64,000 nt of DNA from positions 1-64,000 of the IMG/VR virus record IMGVR_UViG_3300046697_000351; one strand, given 5' to 3'. This document shows, piece by piece, positions 1,123-32,474 of the stretch (position 1 is the first letter of the stretch; each line of letters starts with the position of its first letter). The DNA comes from an uncultured virus (IMG/VR IMGVR_UViG_3300046697_000351). Taxonomy: Duplodnaviria; Heunggongvirae; Uroviricota; Caudoviricetes. The notes beneath the pieces were generated by a model that worked only from the letters and a program-made list of their open reading frames with translations, was not told where the DNA came from and did not search any database. A program made the position numbers and the translations under genes.

Positions 1123-1701
1123 CTATCCACCGATACTGGGCGGAAAGGCACTCACGCTTCCCTCGCCATCGTCCGGGGCGTTGATCCCCGGGGTCAGGTC
1201 CTTGTCCGCGCCTGCGCCGTAGTACCGAGCGCGCCAGGCCTCCGCTCCCTTTTGCAGGGTCCGAAACGTATCCTTGCAGAACTCGTGCACCGTCTTCAGG
1301 TCCTCGATCGACCACTTCAGGGCGATCAGGTCGGGGTCGATCGTAAGGGCCCGCTCCAGCGCCGCGTCCGACTTCGGGCGCTTCGCCACTTCCTCGTTCC
1401 CGTTCAAGGCCGCCGCCTTCTGGGCCCTGACCCTGTCCATGGCCATGCCGTACTCGTTGAGCTTGAACGCGACGCGGGCGGCCATGACGTTGGTGTAGCT
1501 CATCACGACCTGAATCTTGACCATGAAGTGGGCGACGGCCCCGGGCAGGCAGTCGGTGTCGATGACGTTGGCCTGCTCCTCAGCCAGGTCCGTGAAGATG
1601 GAAAGGTTCAGGTTCGGCTCCCTGTCCAGTACCGCGAGGTTCGGGTTAAGTTCCGACCAGCTCTGAGGAAAATTGCACTTGTCGCTGAACAGCTTTATCA
1701 T
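1123..1701 (-). CDS. Helical protein, UvsY-like recombination mediator candidate
   Basis: Start MIKLFSDK overlaps the upstream stop; helical segment KSDAALERALTIDPDLIALK resembles phage UvsY-like proteins. Confidence 0.45.
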   Translation of the reverse strand: MIKLFSDKCNFPQSWSELNPNLAVLDREPNLNLSIFTDLAEEQANVIDTDCLPGAVAHFMVKIQVVMSYTNVMAARVAFKLNEYGMAMDRVRAQKAAALNGNEEVAKRPKSDAALERALTIDPDLIALKWSIEDLKTVHEFCKDTFRTLQKGAEAWRARYYGAGADKDLTPGINAPDDGEGSVSAFPPSIGG

Positions 1702-2066
1702 TTTTGCCTCCCCGTCATGGGATCGCGGGTCACCGCGTTCCTGATCTGGCCCAGAGTCAGGGCCTCGTTCACGCGCTGGATCACCTCTGACCTGACCCGG
1801 ACCATCATCTGCGCCCGCTCCATCGTCAGGCGCATGTTCCAGTTCAGGAAGAGGTTGTGCTTCTCGCTCTCGTACTTGGGGTCGAGCAACCGCTCCCACT
1901 GGGCCTGCGCCGTGAGCTGCGCGTAGGCCAGGGGCATAGGTAGGTAGACGTACTGCCCCTCCTTGACCGGACCGAAGGCCATGGACCCGTACTGGGTCGA
2001 CGTCGGCCACGTCTCCCCGTAGGTCTCCTCGACGTAACGAACATTCGGCGACTGGCTATGATCCAC
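1698..2066 (-). CDS. Hypothetical protein
   Basis: Overlaps both neighbours in the operon. Confidence 0.6.
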   Translation of the reverse strand: MDHSQSPNVRYVEETYGETWPTSTQYGSMAFGPVKEGQYVYLPMPLAYAQLTAQAQWERLLDPKYESEKHNLFLNWNMRLTMERAQMMVRVRSEVIQRVNEALTLGQIRNAVTRDPMTGRQK

Positions 2067-4203
2067 TGGCTCTCTCCTTACCGTCAGGTCCTTCCAGGCC
2101 CGGCGCCGGTGGAAGGGTGATGGGCTGGGCCACGGCCCGGGCCGCGATCTCCGCCCGTTTCCTGGGGTCTGCGGGGAATAGCTTCAGGTACCTGGGCACG
2201 AACTCAAAGTCTACGATGCAGTGCGCGGGACCGTAGCGGTTCTTCAGAATCTTCGACCGCCAGACGCCCTCCAGCTCCTTCTTCTTCGCGTCTACCAGAC
2301 CCTCTTCCAGCTCCGGTCGCCAGGCCCCGATCAGGACGTCGGCGGAGTCCCGGACCGCGCTGCTGTCGCGGGCGTGGGAGTCGTCGATGGCGACGCCTGG
2401 CTTACCGGCCTTGGTCGTCTGGTGCAAGCTGACGATCCGGCAGTTGAGGCGCTTGGCCACTTCCTTCTGCTCGCGCGCCAGGTACGACACCTGCTCGTAG
2501 ATGGAGTTGCCGTCGCCGTGGAGGTAGCCGAGATAATCGATGAAGATCACGGACACGGGCCTGCCGAAGTAGGCGAAGCCCGCGCCCCGGGTGTTCTCCT
2601 CGATCATCTTCAGGTTCAGGCCGCCCTGGTCGCAGACCAGGAGGTTCTTGAGCTTGGCGCTCAGGCTCTGGGCCGCCGAGAAAATCTTGCTGTTCTGGGC
2701 GTCGTTACCCGCGACCATCCACCTCTCGACCTCACCTCCATCCATCTCCCCGGCCATCTGCATGAAGCGCTCGAAGACCATCAGCGACTTTTGCTCAAGG
2801 CTGTAGAAGATCATGGGGACATCCGGCTGCGTCTCCCCGATCGACATCATCAACTGCTCCGCGAACGTGGTCTTCCCGGTCCCGGCGGCGGCGATCAGCT
2901 GCCAGACGTCTCCGGGCTTCATGCCCCGCGTGAGCTTGTCGTACGGAGCCCAGCCCGTGTTCACGCGCTGGCTGTCGATCGTGCGCGTGTACTCCTCGTA
3001 CTTTGTGATCAGGCTACCGATGTTGTCGAAGGAGATGCTGGAGACGGCCTCTCCGCCCTTGCCAGTCATGTAGTGGTCAACGATCGCCTCGTCCTTCGAC
3101 CACTTCTTGGCGAGGTAGGAAATCAGGTCCTTCTGGCTCAGCGGGTTCTCGGCGATGGCCACCATCGCCTTCGCCCGACGATACTGGAGTTCAACCACGG
3201 GCTCACTGGCCAGGACCTGATCGAGCAGGTACCGGTCCATGGGGATCGACTCCCGCACGATCTTCACCAAGGCATCCTTGCCGTGGTTGATCAGAACATC
3301 ATTCAAATCCTTCGAGCCATCCGGGATCACGACCGCGCGGATGTGGGCCTCAGGCACCGCTGAGTGGATCACGGTGCGGTTCACCAGGAGCTTGTCCTGG
3401 GCCGTCCTATCGTTGCAGGCCGCGAACAGGACCACCATCCCAAGACCGCCCAAAGCCCTTATCTCTTCCGCCTGCTCTTTGGTGACCTTCGACGAGCAAT
3501 ACGCCACTCCGGTCTTGATCCCTGCTTCCCAGAGCGCAGCACAACACATGTAGCTCTCGCAGAGGATAAGATGCTGGTCCTGGGACAGGAACCTCCGGGC
3601 CCGGTCAAAGTTATAGAGGATGCTCTTCTTGTCGTAGATTTCATCGGCGGCGTCATTCTTCCACTTCGGTCCGCCCTTGACAGCGTAGTCGAGATCGCGC
3701 CTGGCAAAAGCAACGATGCGCCCAAACTTGTCATTGATAGGTACGACGATCGAGTTCTCGCGAGTGGCGAAGGTGATGCCGAGGTCCTGGATAGTCTGGT
3801 CCGAGAGCTTACGCTCCTCGCGCAGGTATCGGACCAGCTCGGGTCGCGCGCTGCCGATTGTGGGAAGCGCCGACAGCATATCGGACTTCTCCTTCCTCCT
3901 CTTCTCAGACTTCTCATACCGATCACTCTCTTCCTGGCTGACCACGATGTTGTATTCTATGCACAGGGAACGGGCGGAATCGACGATGCTGAGATTCTGC
4001 CTCCGCGCCTCAAAATCAATTACTGACCCTCCAGAATTGCATTTTCCATAACACCAAAAATGATCTTTATATACGTAAAAACTTGGCGTGCGCTCCTCGT
4101 GGAATGGGCAGCAAGCCTTCATCGGCATCGTAGTACCGTGAAGTTCGACGTGCTTACCTATATGACGAATTATATCGACGGAATCGCGAACGCGATTAAA
4201 CAT
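2056..4203 (-). CDS. Fused DNA primase-helicase (CHC2 Zn finger + TOPRIM + DnaB-like helicase)
   Basis: CCPFHEERTPSF...CYGKC zinc finger, KDLND primase motif, Walker A AAAGTGKTT, IFIDYL Walker B, KNRYGP. Confidence 0.92.
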   Translation of the reverse strand: MFNRVRDSVDIIRHIGKHVELHGTTMPMKACCPFHEERTPSFYVYKDHFWCYGKCNSGGSVIDFEARRQNLSIVDSARSLCIEYNIVVSQEESDRYEKSEKRRKEKSDMLSALPTIGSARPELVRYLREERKLSDQTIQDLGITFATRENSIVVPINDKFGRIVAFARRDLDYAVKGGPKWKNDAADEIYDKKSILYNFDRARRFLSQDQHLILCESYMCCAALWEAGIKTGVAYCSSKVTKEQAEEIRALGGLGMVVLFAACNDRTAQDKLLVNRTVIHSAVPEAHIRAVVIPDGSKDLNDVLINHGKDALVKIVRESIPMDRYLLDQVLASEPVVELQYRRAKAMVAIAENPLSQKDLISYLAKKWSKDEAIVDHYMTGKGGEAVSSISFDNIGSLITKYEEYTRTIDSQRVNTGWAPYDKLTRGMKPGDVWQLIAAAGTGKTTFAEQLMMSIGETQPDVPMIFYSLEQKSLMVFERFMQMAGEMDGGEVERWMVAGNDAQNSKIFSAAQSLSAKLKNLLVCDQGGLNLKMIEENTRGAGFAYFGRPVSVIFIDYLGYLHGDGNSIYEQVSYLAREQKEVAKRLNCRIVSLHQTTKAGKPGVAIDDSHARDSSAVRDSADVLIGAWRPELEEGLVDAKKKELEGVWRSKILKNRYGPAHCIVDFEFVPRYLKLFPADPRKRAEIAARAVAQPITLPPAPGLEGPDGKERASGS

Positions 4204-13345: not shown

Positions 13346-13363
13346 CCCAGTACCGTATATCAT

Positions 13364-13812
13364 GGCAGGCGAGGCGGGGCTTGGCCTGGATTGTTATGGT
13401 GCGTCACGGTTCGGTAAGGTAGGTCTAGGCAGGCGTGGCTCGGCGTGGCTCGGCGTGTCCAGGAAAGGCGTAACGTGGTCCGGCGGGGTCCGGCATGGCA
13501 GGCGGGGTGGGGTCTGGATTGGTCTGGCTGGGTTGGGACTGGTCGGGTCCGGTAGGGCGAGGTTGGGCAGGCTAGGTATGTCGAGGTCGGGACTGGCGAG
13601 GCGAGGCCCGGCTTGTTCTGGTTCGGCAGGCACGGCATGTTGTGGTTGGGTCCGGAGAGGTGGGGCGCAGTGTGGCATGGCAGGCTTGGCCCGGCTTGTT
13701 CTGGTTCGGCGGCGCGGGGCGGGATGTGGCCCAGCGGGGCGGGATACGGCAGGCTAGGCGCGTTAAGGAAAGGTGCGGTGAGGCGGGAACAGGGTTAGGT
13801 TAGGCTCGGTAA
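13364..13812 (+). ncRNA. GGY-NN pentamer array: 7 units, each opened by GGCA (candidate guide RNAs)
   Basis: Units start at 13364, 13428, 13497, 13566, 13625, 13679, 13748; 10-13 pentamers each; 61 of 83 pentamers begin GGC/GGT by manual parse. Confidence 0.8.
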
Positions 13813-13813
13813 T

Positions 13814-13849
13814 GGCTGGCGCGGTGCGATTGTTACCACCGCGCCAGCC
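13814..13849 (+). terminator. 13-bp perfect hairpin closing the array
   Basis: GGCTGGCGCGGTG-10 nt-CACCGCGCCAGCC; no U-tract. Confidence 0.7.
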
Positions 13850-13914
13850 TGAGCAAGAAAGTGATCTGATGAATAATATAAAGTCGAGTAACTATCCCAT
13901 CAAGACACGTAGCC

Positions 13915-13943
13915 TTGACAAGAAAGCATCCTCCTGTTATACT
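13915..13943 (+). promoter_or_regulatory. tnpB1 promoter
   Basis: TTGACA-17-TATACT. Confidence 0.8.
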
Positions 13944-13949
13944 AATCAT

Positions 13950-14030
13950 GCTACCGGATGAAGTGAGCATTTTCATTCTTAGGTCCTCGTGCGGAAACGC
14001 TCACGGTGCTTCCGGTAGCCACGAGGGCCT
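13950..14030 (+). ncRNA. Structured (pseudoknot-like) 5' leader of tnpB1
   Basis: 13950-58 pairs 14011-19; 13963-68 pairs 13999-14004; 13981-91 pairs 14020-30; same topology in element 2. Confidence 0.7.
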
Positions 14031-14037
14031 TCTTTTT

Positions 14038-15180
14038 ATGTTGAAGACTTATTCGTTCAGGCTCTACCCGAACCACGCGCAGACTAAGAATCTGGCGCAG
14101 CACTTCGGCGCGGCCCGCTGGATTTACAACCAATCCCTTGAGCGAAAGATCAAAGTCTACCAGGAGACGAAGAAGAGCCTGTCCTGGGTCGACCTCGCCA
14201 AGGAGATCACAGGTCTCAAGAAGGCCGCTGGTACGATGTGGCTCCAGGATGTTGCTCTCGCCCCGCTCCAGTCCTCTGTTCGGCACCTCGACTCCTCCTT
14301 CAAGAGATTTTTCCAGGAGAAGAGAGGCTTCCCGGCGTTCAAGCGGAGGCGCGGCAGGCAGTCGTTCCAGTATCCCACCGGAGTCAAGGTGGATTTCCCG
14401 AAACACCTGCTCTACCTCCCCCGCATCGGATGGATTCGTTTTAGAGACCCAAGAGTGTTCTATGGCAAGATCGGCACCGTTACCGTCGTCAAGTCGTCTA
14501 CCGGGAAGCACTACGCCCAGGTCCTGGTCGAGTTGCCTGGGGAAGTCATTGAGAAGAAGCCGCTGGAGCAGTCCAGGGCCGTTGGCGTCGACGTTGGACT
14601 GACAACTTTCGCGACCTTCTCCGACGGGCGCAAGATAGCGAACCCGCGCTTCTTGAAGACCGCCCTGACGAAACTGCGCCGCGCGAACCGGCGTCTGAGC
14701 CGCAAGCAGAAGGGCTCCAATAACAGGAGCAAGTCGCGGTTGAAACTCGCGCATGTTCACGAGAAGATCGCGAACCGCAGAAAAGACTTCTTGCACAAGT
14801 TGACGAGCCAGATGACGAACGAGAACCAAGTCGACACCTGGGTAGTCGAGACGTTGAACGTGAAGGGCATGGGGAAGATGCGCAGCCTGTCTCGCGCCAT
14901 CCACGATGCGGCCTGGTCGGAGTTTGTGCGCCAGCTCGCATACAAGAGCGAGTGGCGCGGTAAGAACCTGGTGAAGATCGGTCGCTTCATGCCGTCGTCT
15001 AAGATGTGTTCCTGCGGAGCGATCAATGATAGTCTGCGCCTCGCCGACAGGACGTGGACGTGCGCCATGTGCGGCGCCACCCACGATAGAGACGTGCTGG
15101 CCGCGCAGAACATTCTGCGGTTCGGCTTTGATACCGAGGGTAACCCGGGAATTAACGCTTCTGGACAGGCGGTGCCTTAA
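14038..15180 (+). CDS. tnpB: RNA-guided endonuclease TnpB
   Basis: KTYSFRLYPN N-terminus, RuvC-I GVDVGL, RuvC-II VVETLNV, Zn finger CSCG...CAMCG, RuvC-III HDRDVLAAQNI. Confidence 0.95.
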   Translation: MLKTYSFRLYPNHAQTKNLAQHFGAARWIYNQSLERKIKVYQETKKSLSWVDLAKEITGLKKAAGTMWLQDVALAPLQSSVRHLDSSFKRFFQEKRGFPAFKRRRGRQSFQYPTGVKVDFPKHLLYLPRIGWIRFRDPRVFYGKIGTVTVVKSSTGKHYAQVLVELPGEVIEKKPLEQSRAVGVDVGLTTFATFSDGRKIANPRFLKTALTKLRRANRRLSRKQKGSNNRSKSRLKLAHVHEKIANRRKDFLHKLTSQMTNENQVDTWVVETLNVKGMGKMRSLSRAIHDAAWSEFVRQLAYKSEWRGKNLVKIGRFMPSSKMCSCGAINDSLRLADRTWTCAMCGATHDRDVLAAQNILRFGFDTEGNPGINASGQAVP

Positions 15181-15231
15181 TGCCCCTGGTTGAAGGAAGA
15201 AATCCATACGTGTTCTCATGGGATAGTTACC
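15131..15231 (+). ncRNA. Putative omegaRNA scaffold of tnpB1 (boundaries approximate)
   Basis: ATACCGAGGG-AACCCGGGAATTAACGC...GAAATCCATACGTGTTC conserved with element 2, including past the stop codon. Confidence 0.65.
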
Positions 15232-15253
15232 TTTCAGATCGGAGACCATCCTG

Positions 15254-23080: not shown

Positions 23081-26000
23081 GTGGAAGAGATCAAGGTCAC
23101 CCACCCACTGGAACTGGCCCTGGGGGGCCTCGGGCAGGCGGCGTCCCTGCCCGGGGCCCCGGCCCCTGGCCGACCGTGGGCACCGGCCTGGACGCCCCAG
23201 GCCCCCGGTGCCTGCCCCTTAACAGGGCAGGAGAAGGTGCTGACCCTGAGCCTCCTGGAGGGGTCCCTGATCAAGGTCGAGGCCAGTCCCGCGAGCCCGG
23301 ACCTGTTCATCGAGATCAGCCGACTCCCGACCAGGGTCCAGAGGAAGGGGGCCCTCGGGGCCTCGTTCTACGACCTGCCAGGAATCCAGTCCGTGGCCAT
23401 GTCCCAGGGCTACCGGATCGAGTACGCCCCAGAGGTGCAGGCCCTGATCGACAAGTGGAACCTCTGGTGCCTGGACCTGGAGCAGGTAAAAACGTTCTCC
23501 GACGTCTCAGGCTTCAGGGTTCCGGGCCTAGACGTGGAGTTCATGCCGTTTCAGGCTAGGGGCGTCGCCTACGGCTGCAAGATCAAGTCCTTCATGCTCT
23601 TGGACACCATGGGGCTAGGAAAGAGTATACAGGTATTGGGAATTCTGTACACCCATCGCCTGTCATTAGGTGGGCGCCTGGAGACCCTGATCTTGTCCCC
23701 GACATCGGTCGTCGGAGACTGGCAGGCCAAGTTCAGGAAGTTCGCCAAGATCGAGGTGTCGGTAGCGACCGGGAGCAAGGCCAAGCGAACCAAGGTCTAT
23801 CAGGGCAAGCCCGAGTTCCTGCTCATGAGCTACGACGTCTTCATGCGGGACATGGTCGAGGTCGCCAAGAGCTTCCGGCCAAAGGCCCTGATCTGTGATG
23901 AGTGCTTCCCCTATAATCAATTCGTAGCTACTAAAAATGGCTCCATCAGAATTGGGAGATTATATAACTTGTGGCTGGCCGGGAAGGCTCCTTTGATAAA
24001 GAGCCTCAACCTCGACAGCGGATCATTTGAGTACAGGAGTATTCTGAAGGCGTGGAAGAGAGAATTGAAGCCCATGGTGTATGTAGGAGGAAGTGGTTTC
24101 GGTTTCAGGTGCACTCCGGGCCATCTAATTCTCACTTCTATGGGGTGGGTGCCAGCAGGAAATTTGCGTGTTGGAGACTTTGTGACGACTGGGGCTGACA
24201 TCTCTGGCCGAATAAGGTACTTGGCTCCTATGTTGAACAGCGACCAGAAACAGGTCTTGATAGGATCATTCTTGGGAGATGGGAATATCCATCGACTTGG
24301 AGGTTGTCGATATAGGATCAGATTCCTGCATGGCGCCAAGCAGCGGAGGTACTTGGTTGAGAAGTCTAGAATTTTTGGCTGTAATAAAATAGCCAAGATA
24401 AAAAACAACGGATATTCCGGCGGGATAGCTTATAGGGCAGCCAGCCAGGCATTCTTTTGCAAGGATATTCCCAAAGGAAAAAAAGAGTTTATCCCCGACT
24501 GGATGATCGAAGAGATGGATGCGAGGGCGATAGCTATTTGGCTCTTGGACGACGCGTCATTCAATCACAAAAAAAAGCAGGTGGTCATCCATACCAACAG
24601 ATTCCCGGAATACTTAGTCGAGAGGCTTTGCGTTAGACTCAGGGAATTCGGCGTGAACTGTTATTGCTCCATCACGGCAAAGCACGATGGCAGATTCTTC
24701 TACTATATACGAATACCGGCTAGGGGCTACAAAAGAACAATGGAGCTGTGCGGGAAATTTTTCTTTCTTGGCATGGAAAAGAAAATACCCATGGGCAGTG
24801 AGATTTATGAATGGAGTCCAAAATACCCAGAGGTGTCTCTAGGGCTAGTTACAACGATAGAGCAGGATGACAAGCCAAGAATCGAATCAGAGAATTTTTT
24901 ATTCGATATCGAAATCGATGAGAACCATAACTTTGTGATCTGTTCTCCGTCAAATAAATCCCAGTCTGGGGTGGTGGTCCATAATTGCCAGCGCATTTCT
25001 AACAGGAAGAACAAGGCCGCGATCAGGCTCTTCGACTTTGTCGACGCCGCGCGACCCCAGTACCGGATAATGGCCAGCGGCAGCCCCATCGCGAACAAAC
25101 CCATAGACCTCTGGAGCCTGCTGCGCCTGGTCAACGCCGACCTCGCCGGTTCCCCGACCCTGTTCGAGAAGCGGTACGCCAGGGAGAAGCTGATATACCA
25201 CAAGGACAAGGCCACGGGCGAGGTCAAGCCCAAGGGGACCACCTACGGGTCCGGAGACAAGGCCAAGTTCGTGCCCCTGAAGAAGTTCGAGAACCTGAAC
25301 CCGAAAAAACCCGCCGACGCGATCCTACTCCGCGAACTCCGGGCCAAGATCAGCCCGTGGCTGATCCGCAGGCTGAAGAAGGACGTGCTCACCGACCTCC
25401 CCGAGACCACGGAGGAGACGATCAGCATCAAGCTGGGGCCCCGGGAGCGCAAGGTCTACGAGGAGCTGCAAGCCCGCTTCGCCGAGGCCATGGCCGGGGT
25501 CGCGGACGAGGACTCGGAGAACAGGGTCGACAATTTCTTTACCTGGTTCATCCGCGCGCAGCAGGTGTGCTGCTCCCTGGAGATCGGAGGACACGGCAAG
25601 GAGTCGTCCAAGATCGATGAGCTAAGGAAGTTCGTCGAGGACTACTCCGAGGAGCAGAAAATCCTTATCTTCAGCCGGTTCAAGGGCATGACCGACATCG
25701 TCCACCGGGAGATGAAGGAGTACAACCCCGCGTACCTGCACGGGGCCGTAGCGCAGGCAGACAGGCAGCCTCTGGTGGACAGGTTCCAGACCGAGGACGA
25801 CTGCCGACTCTTCATCTCGACCCTGGGCGCCGGTGGCGTGGGCTTGACCCTCACCGCAGGGTCCATCGTCGCCAGGCTCGACCGCTGGGTCAGCCCGATC
25901 CTCAACGATCAGTGCGTGGCCAGGGCTGACCGAATAGGTCAGAAGCGCAACGTCCTGGTCGTGGATTTCGTCGTCCGCGACAGCGTCGAGGAGCGCATCT

Positions 26001-26125
26001 TAGGAATCCTGGAGGGCAAGTCCAGGATGATCAACAGCCTCATCGTCTCGGAGCAGTCCGAGGAGCAGCAGGAGAAGAAGATTCTCCGGGCCCTAGGTAA
26101 GCAGGGGATGCTCAAGCTCATCTGA
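23081..26125 (+). CDS. SNF2-family helicase/ATPase containing an intein
   Basis: PFQARG, DTMGLGKS, ICDE|intein|CQ, SGSPIAN, RRLKKDV, GGVGLTLT, RADRIGQ. Confidence 0.92.
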   Translation: MEEIKVTHPLELALGGLGQAASLPGAPAPGRPWAPAWTPQAPGACPLTGQEKVLTLSLLEGSLIKVEASPASPDLFIEISRLPTRVQRKGALGASFYDLPGIQSVAMSQGYRIEYAPEVQALIDKWNLWCLDLEQVKTFSDVSGFRVPGLDVEFMPFQARGVAYGCKIKSFMLLDTMGLGKSIQVLGILYTHRLSLGGRLETLILSPTSVVGDWQAKFRKFAKIEVSVATGSKAKRTKVYQGKPEFLLMSYDVFMRDMVEVAKSFRPKALICDECFPYNQFVATKNGSIRIGRLYNLWLAGKAPLIKSLNLDSGSFEYRSILKAWKRELKPMVYVGGSGFGFRCTPGHLILTSMGWVPAGNLRVGDFVTTGADISGRIRYLAPMLNSDQKQVLIGSFLGDGNIHRLGGCRYRIRFLHGAKQRRYLVEKSRIFGCNKIAKIKNNGYSGGIAYRAASQAFFCKDIPKGKKEFIPDWMIEEMDARAIAIWLLDDASFNHKKKQVVIHTNRFPEYLVERLCVRLREFGVNCYCSITAKHDGRFFYYIRIPARGYKRTMELCGKFFFLGMEKKIPMGSEIYEWSPKYPEVSLGLVTTIEQDDKPRIESENFLFDIEIDENHNFVICSPSNKSQSGVVVHNCQRISNRKNKAAIRLFDFVDAARPQYRIMASGSPIANKPIDLWSLLRLVNADLAGSPTLFEKRYAREKLIYHKDKATGEVKPKGTTYGSGDKAKFVPLKKFENLNPKKPADAILLRELRAKISPWLIRRLKKDVLTDLPETTEETISIKLGPRERKVYEELQARFAEAMAGVADEDSENRVDNFFTWFIRAQQVCCSLEIGGHGKESSKIDELRKFVEDYSEEQKILIFSRFKGMTDIVHREMKEYNPAYLHGAVAQADRQPLVDRFQTEDDCRLFISTLGAGGVGLTLTAGSIVARLDRWVSPILNDQCVARADRIGQKRNVLVVDFVVRDSVEERILGILEGKSRMINSLIVSEQSEEQQEKKILRALGKQGMLKLI
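23903..24985 (+). mobile_element. Intein (361 aa) with LAGLIDADG homing endonuclease
   Basis: Begins CFPYNQ, block B CTPGHLI, LIGSFLGDG, ends VVHN followed by Cys; AT-rich relative to exteins. Confidence 0.93.
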
Positions 26126-30031: not shown

Positions 30032-30257
30032 CGGTGGCATCATGAGCGAGTCCTACGACTGCTTCCGGGACAGGCTCCCGAACGCGGTGTGCATGGGCGA
30101 CAAGCACTCGTGCTGCGCGCGCTGCGTCAACAGCAAGAGCGAAGAAGAGAGGAGGGCCCTGATAATGGGCCGGGAGATTCCCGATGGTAATTATCCCTTG
30201 ACAACACTTAAAACAAATAGGACTTTACAACGGAAAATAATATGCTATACTATAAAT

Positions 30258-30327
30258 GCTCCCGGTGGATTTTCTATTTACGGGTCGTCCGTGCCGACGG
30301 GAAACCATCGGGAGCCACGGACGACCC
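30258..30327 (+). ncRNA. Structured (pseudoknot-like) 5' leader of tnpB2
   Basis: 30258-68 pairs 30305-15; 30282-93 pairs 30316-27 (12/12); begins 7 nt after TG-C-TATACT. Confidence 0.7.
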
Positions 30328-30333
30328 ACTTTT

Positions 30334-31521
30334 ATGATTCTTAAAACTTTCCAGCTAAGGCTCTACCCAAATCGTCGGCAGACGCGCTTGCTATCCAAAC
30401 ATTTCGGCTGTGCCCGCTTCGTCTACAACTGGGGGCTGGCAAAGAAACGGGACGAATATGAGAAAACTGGGAAGTCCTCCACATGGGTCGCTCTCTGCAA
30501 AGAACTAACCATATTGAAGCAGGGCACCTATTGGCTGTGTGAGGTAGCCACTGCTCCATTACAATCTTCTATCCGGCATCTCGACGCGGCTTACCAGAAG
30601 TTTTTCAAGGAGAAGAAAGGATATCCGGCGTTCAAGCGCAAACACGGACGTCAGGCATTTCAGTATCCGGAGAACGTTAAGGTTAACGCCGAAAAGCGTC
30701 AGTTGTATTTCCCATGCATCGGATGGGTACGCTACCTCGATGGGCGCAGTATGGACGGGCAGATTAAAACCGTGACCGTAGTGCGTAGCGCGACGGGTAA
30801 GCACTACGCGCAGGTCCTGGTTTTACTACCTGATAATATCCCTGAGAAGAAGCCTCTCGATAAGTCGCGTGCGGTTGGCATTGATGTCGGCCTGACGACA
30901 TTCGCTACATTCTCTGACGGGCGCAAGGTCGCTAACCCGCGTTTCCTAAAATGGAGTCTTAAAAAGCTGGCGACGGCAAACAGGCATCTGAGTCGGACGC
31001 GGAAAGGTTCAGAGAACCGTGGCAAGGCGCGGTTACATTTGGCATTGGCTCACGAGAAGGTCGCTAACCGCAGAAAAGATTTCCTGCATAAACTGACGAC
31101 ACAGATGGTAAACGAAAACCAAGTTGACACCTGGGTCATCGAGACGTTGAACGTAGCCGGTATGGTCAAACTGCGGAGCCTATCGAGAAGCATTCATGAT
31201 GCCAGCTGGTCGGAGTTTGTACGTCAGCTAGTGTATAAATGTGACTGGCGTGGTAAGAACTTGATAAAGATTGGTAGGTTCATGCCGTCGTCTAAGATGT
31301 GCTCTTGCGGTGCAGTAAATGATGACTTGCGTTTGGCTGACCGGACGTGGACGTGCAGGATGTGCGGGGTTACGCATGACAGGGATATCCTAGCGGCCCA
31401 GAACATTCTGAAGTTTTCTAATCTAAATACCGAGGGCAACCCGGGAATTAACGCCTCTGGAGAGGAAGGTCGTAAACTTCCCCGTGGAAAGAGGAAATCC
31501 ATACGTGTTCGGAAGGGATAG
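30334..31521 (+). CDS. tnpB: RNA-guided endonuclease TnpB
   Basis: GIDVGL / VIETLNV / HDRDILAAQNI RuvC triad intact; close paralog of tnpB1. Confidence 0.95.
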   Translation: MILKTFQLRLYPNRRQTRLLSKHFGCARFVYNWGLAKKRDEYEKTGKSSTWVALCKELTILKQGTYWLCEVATAPLQSSIRHLDAAYQKFFKEKKGYPAFKRKHGRQAFQYPENVKVNAEKRQLYFPCIGWVRYLDGRSMDGQIKTVTVVRSATGKHYAQVLVLLPDNIPEKKPLDKSRAVGIDVGLTTFATFSDGRKVANPRFLKWSLKKLATANRHLSRTRKGSENRGKARLHLALAHEKVANRRKDFLHKLTTQMVNENQVDTWVIETLNVAGMVKLRSLSRSIHDASWSEFVRQLVYKCDWRGKNLIKIGRFMPSSKMCSCGAVNDDLRLADRTWTCRMCGVTHDRDILAAQNILKFSNLNTEGNPGINASGEEGRKLPRGKRKSIRVRKG

Positions 31522-31526
31522 TTGCC
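31427..31526 (+). ncRNA. Putative omegaRNA scaffold of tnpB2 (boundaries approximate)
   Basis: Conserved with 15131-15231; CCTCT/AGAGG vs CTTCT/GGAAG compensatory pairing. Confidence 0.65.
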
Positions 31527-31532
31527 TTCCCG

Positions 31533-32474
31533 ATGGACGAGAACAAGCAGATTCAGGCGGTGGGCAGCAAGGGCCTGGAGCAGATCGCGGAGGAGAAGGC
31601 TCAGGAGCGCGGACTACAGGAGCAGGCGGCGGCTCAGGGTCAGCGGGTAGCTCCCAAGGGGCAGCCCCCGAGGATCAACAACTTCTTCCTGATCAGGACC
31701 CCGATGGAGCCGCAGGCCTTCGTCGACTTTATCGATAAGGACGTCCTGAACAAGAACGAGATCAGGATCGATCCCTGCGGCGCGATGATGGGCATGATCA
31801 CCCTCCGTTTCGCCTCTGGCCTGCCCAGGCCCGGGGCGGCCCTGCCCATCGAGACCCAGGGTCCCGGGGCATCGCCCCTGGTCAAGGTCGAGAACATGAT
31901 CTTGGCCAAGCTCGACGCTGGGCCGTGGCCCTGGTACGACCGGGTCTCGACCGACATCCTGACCCAGATCGTGGAGCGCCTGAACGTCAGGGCCTGGGTC
32001 TGCGGCTGGGCCATGGACAAGGCCTGGTCCTGGGTAGAGGCCTGGCGACCGCACCGCAACACCGGGACCGCGACCATGACCGAGACTTTCGATGGTCCCT
32101 CAAACGGGGAGGTGACGAGGAAGGCGGCGGAGCGCTGGGGGATAAACGTCCGGGACGCGTTCGACGCCCTACACCTGGCGGCCCAGTACGAGGCCCTGCG
32201 GAGGTGGCTGATCCTGCCGGAGCCCAGGCCCGTGCCGTTCACGGCCCACGTCAGCTACCTCGCGGGAAAGCTGCTGGTCGGGGAGGGAGATAGGGAATGG
32301 ATCGTAAAAAAATGGGAAGAAAATTTTCCCTGGCGCAGGCCCGAGGATGGGCCGCTGCACATCCAACGCTACTACCTGCCCCGGAACCAGCAGGAGATGC
32401 TGGAAAAGATCGAGCAGGATAAAAAAGGAAAGGCCCCAACCTTTCGATTGGAGCCCCCCTTCGCTGGCCTCTAG
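31533..32474 (+). CDS. Hypothetical protein
   Basis: 313-aa GC3-rich ORF; start codon overlaps the TSD. Confidence 0.7.
   Translation: MDENKQIQAVGSKGLEQIAEEKAQERGLQEQAAAQGQRVAPKGQPPRINNFFLIRTPMEPQAFVDFIDKDVLNKNEIRIDPCGAMMGMITLRFASGLPRPGAALPIETQGPGASPLVKVENMILAKLDAGPWPWYDRVSTDILTQIVERLNVRAWVCGWAMDKAWSWVEAWRPHRNTGTATMTETFDGPSNGEVTRKAAERWGINVRDAFDALHLAAQYEALRRWLILPEPRPVPFTAHVSYLAGKLLVGEGDREWIVKKWEENFPWRRPEDGPLHIQRYYLPRNQQEMLEKIEQDKKGKAPTFRLEPPFAGL

Follow-up and report, generated by a model that had tools for sequence, protein, structure and literature searches.

Two tnpB genes in the genome of a tailed phage are each preceded by a leader of about 80 bases, which spans the gap from a strong promoter to the start codon. 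This raises the question of whether the leader is a functional RNA and, if so, what it does to the gene behind it. The virus record is 72,327 nt long, and the window, the whole stretch of DNA analysed here, is a 64,000-nt part of it. Tail, baseplate, primase-helicase and helicase genes are present in the window, and the record is therefore that of a tailed phage.

The two tnpB genes and their leaders

The genes lie in two elements, called E1 and E2 here, with the following coding and 3' features.

14038..15180, + strand: E1 tnpB, 380 aa, with RuvC D/E/D motifs and zinc-finger cysteines
15133..15231, + strand: presumed omegaRNA scaffold of E1, with an approximate 5' boundary and the right inverted repeat (15206-15231) at its 3' end
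30334..31521, + strand: E2 tnpB, 395 aa, with catalytic motifs present
31428..31526, + strand: presumed omegaRNA scaffold of E2, with an approximate 5' boundary and the right inverted repeat (31501-31526) at its 3' end

The two proteins are about 70% identical to each other. They score 336 and 331 bits against the NF040570 profile (cut-off 100) and below the cut-off of NF038281, and by the NF040570 match and their RuvC D-E-D residues they are assigned as TnpB RNA-guided nucleases. The E1 3' region is taken by us to be the omegaRNA scaffold from its position and general likeness. A related provirus record is colinear around E2 and has no tnpB. Elsewhere in the window, an SNF2 helicase with a LAGLIDADG intein lies at 23081-26125, and a G-rich repetitive stretch upstream of E1 (13350-13830) has a hairpin at its end (about 13813-13849).

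The leaders are made up as follows.

13915..13943, + strand: E1 promoter, sigma-70-type TTGACA-17-TG.TATACT, 11/12; predicted +1 at 13950
13950-13958 with 14011-14019, + strand: E1 stem P1, 9 bp
13981-13991 with 14020-14030, + strand: E1 stem P2, 11 bp; crosses P1 with no spacer and covers -18 to -8
13950..14019, + strand: E1 early rod (state A), comprising P1 (13950-58/14011-19), P1b (13963-68/13999-14004) and P1c (13970-74/13993-97)
14031..14037, + strand: E1 U-run between P2 and the start codon, 6/7 U; ATG at 14038
30224..30251, + strand: E2 promoter, sigma-70-type TTTACA-16-TG.TATACT, 10/12; predicted +1 at 30258
30258..30333, + strand: E2 leader, with P1, P1c and P2 followed by ACUUUU; ATG at 30334
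30258-30268 with 30305-30315, + strand: E2 stem P1, 11 bp
30270-75 with 30299-304, + strand: E2 helix P1c
30282-30293 with 30316-30327, + strand: E2 stem P2, 12 bp

An initial annotation of this DNA had reported P1 and P2 before both genes, beginning at the predicted transcription start and followed by an ATG with no Shine-Dalgarno sequence. The stems are exactly as described in both E1 and E2. The promoter calls, themselves predictions, likewise place +1 on the first G of P1, since this base lies six bases past the TATACT box in both copies. As to the Shine-Dalgarno sequence, none is conserved, but E1 does carry a GAGG 11 nt ahead of its ATG, within the 3' arm of P2.

When the 72,327-nt genome was searched on both strands for stems that cross (each at least 9 bp, no spacer, at most two G-U pairs), two matches resulted, the leaders of E1 and E2. 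The same criteria were reached by 0/2000 dinucleotide shuffles of E1 and by 0/2000 of E2.

Conservation, exchange and range of the leader

Between E1 and E2, all 17 of the 17 aligned pairs are kept, five of them by changes on both sides; this count alone is weak, there being two sequences and a structure derived from the same two. Further homologues also keep pairs through double changes, and the claim that pairing persists despite sequence change is thus borne out. Four public runs were aligned to E1, and a variant leader was seen in X3 and X4 (one study), with 16 differences from E1 in 13888-14040, of which 11 are listed. The variant has two double changes in P1b (13965 G>A with 14002 C>T; 13966 A>G with 14001 T>C), and its changes 13953 A>G, 13981 A>G and 13985 C>T keep P1 and P2 pairing. 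Contigs from RNA runs X1 and X2 cover parts of the coding region and the 3' end, the leader lying outside them.

A second source of variants arises because the leader is an open frame, so that gene callers have fused its translation to several database TnpBs. Back-translation of six such proteins, of four leader types, leaves all P1 and P2 pairs possible and requires both sides to have changed at one pair in P1 and at three in P2. The leader type of P0001 matches the X3/X4 variant and adds the partner change at 14026. In a random-mutant control, 34 of 4000 mutants did as well as P0129, the most divergent type, for which the control is informative; it is weak for P0001 (632/4000) and P0002 (580/4000). 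When P1b is counted in, P0002 and P0129 each fail at one of 26 pairs. Six leader types are known in all, four of them through protein back-translation or listed substitutions.

The same open frame raises the possibility that the leader is simply coding, with an in-frame ATG or GTG two bases before the predicted start, no stop and an N-terminal extension of 26-31 aa. The frame is open in both E1 and E2, copies that were not selected for it, and length differences come in multiples of three (12 nt between E1 and E2, 3 nt in P0002). The upstream codon, however, is one for M, V or L depending on the leader and lies across the predicted +1, five of the eight listed leader substitutions change the amino acid, and P0001 differs from E1 at 7/30 leader residues with bodies that are 99.5% identical. 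The database cases were selected for being in frame, and we consider a coding leader very improbable. The N-terminal extension of P0008 is unlike the leader by eye, and P0003 and P0007 have no extension.

The stems covary, whereas AUUUUC, GGAAAC and the P1/P2 junction are conserved in sequence. The first two, which form P1c, do not differ between E1 and E2. P0002 and P0129 have G as the first base, turning an A-C mismatch of P1c into a possible G-C pair; among the leader types no P1c pair has changed on both sides.

With two crossing stems kept by covariation, the leader has the pairing pattern of an H-type pseudoknot. Rfam 15 gave 0 matches in the window at the gathering threshold and, at E ≤ 10, one weak match per 251-nt region, both outside the leader; the Rfam search suggested at the outset was thus run, and no family matches either leader. 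No long complementarity was found between the leader and the rest of its element, the longest being 9 and 8 nt. With the further covariation, these two results uphold the earlier view that the leader is a second RNA element separate from the omegaRNA. We conclude that the tnpB leader is a genuine RNA structure, under selection and absent from the RNA catalogue.

A pseudoknot at the 5' terminus that has a second possible fold and some invariant bases would also suit a ligand-sensing riboswitch or a self-cleaving ribozyme. Such a role is nevertheless highly unlikely: no Rfam family lies within either leader even at E ≤ 10, the topology is neither that of pistol nor that of HDV, with nothing between the P1 3' and P2 3' arms, and there is no metabolic gene context. 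The pistol ribozyme was considered specifically and rejected, since the leader has two crossing stems, no junction between the 3' arms and no Rfam match; pistol is described as having three stems, a pseudoknot that joins the loop of P1 to the P2/P3 junction, and 10 conserved bases (PMC4604425).

Leaders are swapped among divergent TnpB cassettes, as judged from three fused proteins. P0005 carries the E1 leader (29/30 aa) on an E2-like body (87%), and P0001 and P0125 carry the variant leader on a body 99.5% like that of E1. This bears on the idea that the leader is an operator bound by TnpB to shut off its own synthesis, or yields a short released RNA that neutralises TnpB. Type III antitoxin pseudoknots are a precedent for the latter. 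For the former there is the precedent of T4 gp32 (PMC3014915), and both would suit the conservation of AUUUUC, GGAAAC and the junction while the stems covary, as well as the presence of the leader with one TnpB clade only. Leaders swapped between divergent TnpBs argue, however, against a cognate pairing of leader and TnpB, and by eye the leader has no likeness to the omegaRNA; we regard TnpB binding as quite unlikely.

The clade in question is small, with eight clusters at 70% identity or more to E1, and the genome collection holds no close member, the best reaching 49%. Scans with the clade alignment returned at least 80 metagenome, 80 viral and 40 genome loci. Among the matches listed, 182 tnpB upstream regions were at least 130 nt long; the top six (scores 24 and 29) are copies of E1 or E2, and the leader is absent from the other 176, which are more distant (score at most 20). 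Of the 31 and 9 loci that two scans for the leader motif picked out in viral contigs, two and one had both stems, all from a near-identical record of the phage, and in viral contigs the leader was not found before genes other than tnpB. A relaxed scan for a pseudoknot before an ATG at 391 loci gave 39 rows, two being E1 and E2 and the other 37 having no shared motif by eye. The covariance-model search proposed in the initial annotation was carried out in part, with a two-sequence model of P2 alone against 57 chosen loci and five virus records, and recovered its own copies only. In BLAST searches of phages and plasmids, both leader regions had only short matches, due to chance or at promoter level. 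A protein atlas yielded nothing further. The leader thus appears confined to one small TnpB clade, for which sampling is thin. In the literature searched, with most subscription journals outside its coverage, no description was found of a tnpB 5' leader or of a transposase 5' UTR pseudoknot like this one.

Competing folds and a possible gate on TnpB translation

The initial annotation envisaged a single static pseudoknot. P1 and P2 belong to it, but helices P1b and P1c had been missed, and with them an alternative fold. When growing transcripts are folded, both copies give a rod, state A, once synthesis has passed the P1 3' arm (-28.2 and -30.6 kcal/mol); 0/200 shuffles were as stable. State A consists of P1, P1b (in E1) and P1c, in which AUUUUC of the U-rich linker pairs with GGAAAC. 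In E1 a single base lies between the P2 5' arm and P1c, and P1c and P2 are therefore mutually exclusive. State A leaves open the stretch from the end of P1 to the ATG, which measures 18 nt in E1, E2, the P0001 type, P0005 and P0129 and 21 nt in P0002; the pseudoknot leaves 6-7 nt before the AUG (10 in P0002).

When the P2 3' arm is present, the pseudoknot-free optimum is the P2 hairpin followed by the U-run (-34.1 kcal/mol in E1, -36.1 in E2). A rough estimate for the pseudoknot, a crude sum of stacks and a fixed loop penalty, is -41.5 kcal/mol for E1 with P1b and -41.2 for E2, against -29.0 and -32.0 for state A; the pseudoknot is thus estimated to be 10-12 kcal/mol more stable, the E1 value requiring that a 7-nt loop span P1 and P1b (without P1b it is -29.4). 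The zero spacer and these rough energies favour P1 and P2 formed together, the P2-only hairpin being the pseudoknot-free minimum. The pseudoknot-free path from state A to the P2 hairpin meets barriers of 19.5 and 22.9 kcal/mol, and a route from state A to the pseudoknot would need the melting of P1c only, worth about 4 kcal/mol in E1. Two mutually exclusive folds, one of them freeing the initiation region, would give a concrete basis to the translational switch put forward earlier.

We suggest, as the reading that we favour while holding it tentatively, that the leader may be a cis-acting gate on TnpB translation in which the order of folding turns synthesis first on and then off. The transcript, predicted to start on the first base of P1, would form the rod of P1, P1b and P1c before the P2 3' arm is transcribed. 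The P2 5' arm would be held in the far loop, away from its partner, and the 18 nt before the AUG, about one 30S footprint, would be open, allowing ribosomes to load on the new message. When the weak, A-U-rich P1c melts and no ribosome stands over the P2 3' arm, P2 would form and stack on P1; in the resulting pseudoknot, with 6-7 nt left before the AUG and the 5' end paired, loading would be blocked and the 5' end shielded. Each message would give a short burst of nuclease and then persist untranslated as a precursor of the omegaRNA at its 3' end, and the very strong promoter would supply guide RNA without an oversupply of the DNA-cutting enzyme. The motive for such a gate would be that one transcript is also the omegaRNA precursor, TnpB having been reported to make omegaRNA from its own mRNA (PMC10278001). 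Repression of translation by 5'UTR structure is reported for IS200 tnpA (PMC4513863). The gate is built on the helices, the covariation of P1, P1b and P2, the order of synthesis and the positions, from which we infer state A in the cell and the effects on ribosomes.

Accessibility calculations agree with the gate in part. In E2 state A, opening -15..+13 costs 1.3-1.7 kcal/mol, below all 16 control phage ORFs (6.3-19.9). In E1 the cost varies with the length of coding sequence included, being 4.2 kcal/mol at 15 nt, 10.9 at 30 nt and 6.4 at 60 nt; the P2 3' arm is able to pair with the early coding region there, and state A is not clearly open, which speaks against the gate. So do the pseudoknot-free opening costs of both leaders (4.4-11.8 kcal/mol), which are no higher than those of the 16 control ORFs, the lack of any double change in P1c and the lack of a conserved Shine-Dalgarno sequence to hide. 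P1c could itself be a by-product of the U-rich and A-rich loops of the pseudoknot.

The pseudoknot might instead be the sole working form, a static aid to initiation and 5' stabiliser that ties up all G/C-rich bases, offers at a set distance an AUG in U-rich surroundings with no Shine-Dalgarno sequence (S1-type loading) and resists decay through its paired 5' end. The pseudoknot is the form estimated to be most stable, its first base is paired, and the spacer of 6-7 nt (10 in P0002) is U-rich in 6/6 leader types, with no conserved Shine-Dalgarno sequence. On the other hand, P2 lies mostly inside the 30S footprint, with 8/11 (E1) and 9/12 (E2) of its pairs within -15..-1 and most of -18 to -7 covered, and a G-C-rich helix of 11-12 bp so near the AUG usually hinders initiation. 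The conserved P1c, incompatible with P2, would also be left unexplained. We think a purely static role rather unlikely.

The long P2 hairpin with the U-run directly behind it (6/7 U in E1), which is the pseudoknot-free minimum, also recalls an intrinsic terminator. Acting as an attenuator, it would release an RNA of 76-88 nt, with state A as the antiterminator; state A forms just when the polymerase reaches the U-run, and attenuation would be compatible with the translation gate, so that the two could act together. A terminator scan called neither copy, however. An intrinsic terminator is a G-C hairpin with a loop of 3-8 nt and at least 5 U behind it; E2 has ACUUUU, with only four U before the ATG, and the start codon would sit at the release point. 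Attenuation is accordingly an unlikely role for the leader.

Transient co-transcriptional structures set the timing of translation in the type I toxin mRNAs of H. pylori, and folding order does so in the leader of the MS2 maturation gene. The transient structures described for hok/sok (PMC3851714) likewise use folding order, with no ligand, to time the translation of a dangerous protein, as is modelled for the tnpB leader. In the toxin mRNAs early structures keep translation off, whereas the leader would be on first and then off, and no antisense RNA or 3' partner is known for the leader. The IS200 tnpA 5'UTR stem-loop, with art200 and Hfq, is also a structured 5'UTR limiting translation of a transposon-encoded enzyme (PMC4513863), but it controls TnpA via a hairpin and antisense RNA, unlike a pseudoknot with a competing 5' rod. 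A further related system is the leader pseudoknot of T4/T2 gene 32 (PMC3014915), which is also phage-borne and stacks two helices coaxially, with U-rich sequence leading from them to the initiation region. That pseudoknot is reported to lie about 67 nt upstream and to act through cooperative gp32 binding, while in the tnpB leader P2 ends 6-7 nt from the AUG, the stems are of 9-12 bp and an alternative fold is conserved. Since control of a mobile-element enzyme by a structured 5'UTR is already known, what the leader would add is its specific two-state design.

IS1595-type ends and the TnpB cassettes

The initial annotation rightly recognised two tnpB elements but missed their ends. The sequence RGYAAYTATCCC occurs in exactly four copies in the genome, inverted at the ends of E1 and E2. 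The inverted repeats are 26 bp long, and the four ends have a mean column identity of 87%.

13887..13912, + strand: IS1595-type left inverted repeat of E1, beginning with A instead of G; this side has no target duplication
13887-15231: E1 element, with its right inverted repeat at 15206-15231
30178..30185, + strand: E2 left target-site duplication, 8 bp
30186..30211, + strand: E2 left inverted repeat, 26/26 identical to the left end of the intact IS1595 element L375
30186-31526: E2 element, with its right inverted repeat at 31501-31526
31527..31534, + strand: E2 right target-site duplication, running into the ATG of the next phage gene (31533)

An 8-bp target duplication is a trait of the IS1595 family; E2 has one, unlike E1. 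A pattern drawn from the four ends picked up four other loci in viral contigs. L375 is an intact IS1595 element (1612-3025, - strand) in a 44-kb phage, with a transposase (NF033547/PF12762), two small passenger frames and an 8-bp duplication, its left repeat supplying a TTGACA -35 box. L376 and L379 encode partial relatives of the L375 transposase. L380 is a 560-bp element near 3001-3024 with the same repeats, its own 8-bp duplication and no transposase relative. Contigs that leave E1 after 15232-15233, and one that begins at 13887-13888, fit the E1 ends. A looser right-end pattern gave 119 viral loci, none with TnpB, and was discarded as noise.

No IS1595 DDE transposase was found in E1, E2, G000 (46% complete) or G001 (64% complete), which makes the elements non-autonomous. 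By these features E1 and E2 are tnpB-only cassettes on IS1595 ends. The IS1341 group of the IS200/IS605 family was ruled out as host element by the inverted repeats and target duplication, that group being defined by the lack of both (PMC13565253). Solo tnpB genes between inverted terminal repeats, moved in trans, are reported for the DDE-associated TnpB branches DDE-1 to DDE-6 (PMC10691335). E1 and E2 resemble these in having a solo tnpB and inverted repeats, their ends being those of IS1595; in the part of that account available no 5' leader RNA was found described. The DDE partners named in a 2026 review are ISL2, IS630 and IS1031 (PMC13565253). IS1595 ends would thus be a further partner for TnpB cassettes, none having been found in the literature searched, again with most subscription journals outside its coverage (the additional files of PMC10691335 may name IS1595).

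The ends also bear on whether the leader is a DNA-level signal, like the single-strand hairpins of IS200/IS605. It does lie 63-72 nt inside the left end, and in E2 the two strands fold equally well. The ends, however, are the inverted repeats of a DDE element, and the fold is absent from the four other IS1595-type loci with the same repeat (L375, L376, L379, L380). The start of the leader coincides exactly with the predicted +1, and the transcript strand tolerates G-U pairs; a DNA signal is barely credible. Weak outward promoter-like sites (9/12) lie on the - strand near the left ends, at 13875-13903 and 30249-30276, in non-matching positions; no conserved antisense promoter was seen at E1 and E2.

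The right repeat closes the omegaRNA region, so that the target duplication would supply the first bases of the guide. At E2, the left junction (30178-30187) equals the first 10 nt of the predicted guide, and the original upstream flank is intact; the junction is a possible self-target next to the promoter. Cassettes of this kind would keep a target-adjacent motif and an 8-10 nt guide match at their own left end, and so may need tight dosing of the nuclease. A further prospect, possible if rather doubtful, is that the leader represents a ligand-free 'timer' class, in which folding order sends the tnpB transcript to translation and then to use as guide RNA, and which travels as a swappable module of TnpB cassettes on IS1595 ends. 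If true, it would be the first described regulator of TnpB synthesis; the omegaRNA paper suggests control in cis and, in the part available, shows only an inhibitory coding segment (PMC10278001). It would bear on what limits TnpB output and on how a single transcript is divided between the roles of message and guide precursor. The leader is a small candidate open to direct tests, with natural compensatory variants already at hand, and TnpB tools built on a single transcript could use it as a compact part for dosing.

The right flanks of the clade (E1, E2, L135, X2, X3) all start with T. Of the 8-mers at the other loci, that of L375 also has T first, and those of L376, L379 and L380 have A. One possible reading of the T-start flanks is that the nuclease filters insertion sites.

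In X3 and X4 contigs without E1, the DNA before the E1 right flank (15232) is like a tRNA 3' end by eye and ends in CCACCA. There is no tRNA in the window and E1 has no duplication, which suggests an adjacent deletion or a mosaic element. Among other tnpB loci, L158, L243, L244, L280 and L189 have inverted matches of 20-24/24 nt flanking the gene, and L158 and L243 look IS1595-like by eye. E2, finally, sits between the GGGAG ribosome-binding site of a phage gene and its ATG, parting the two (30170-30185, 31527-31535).
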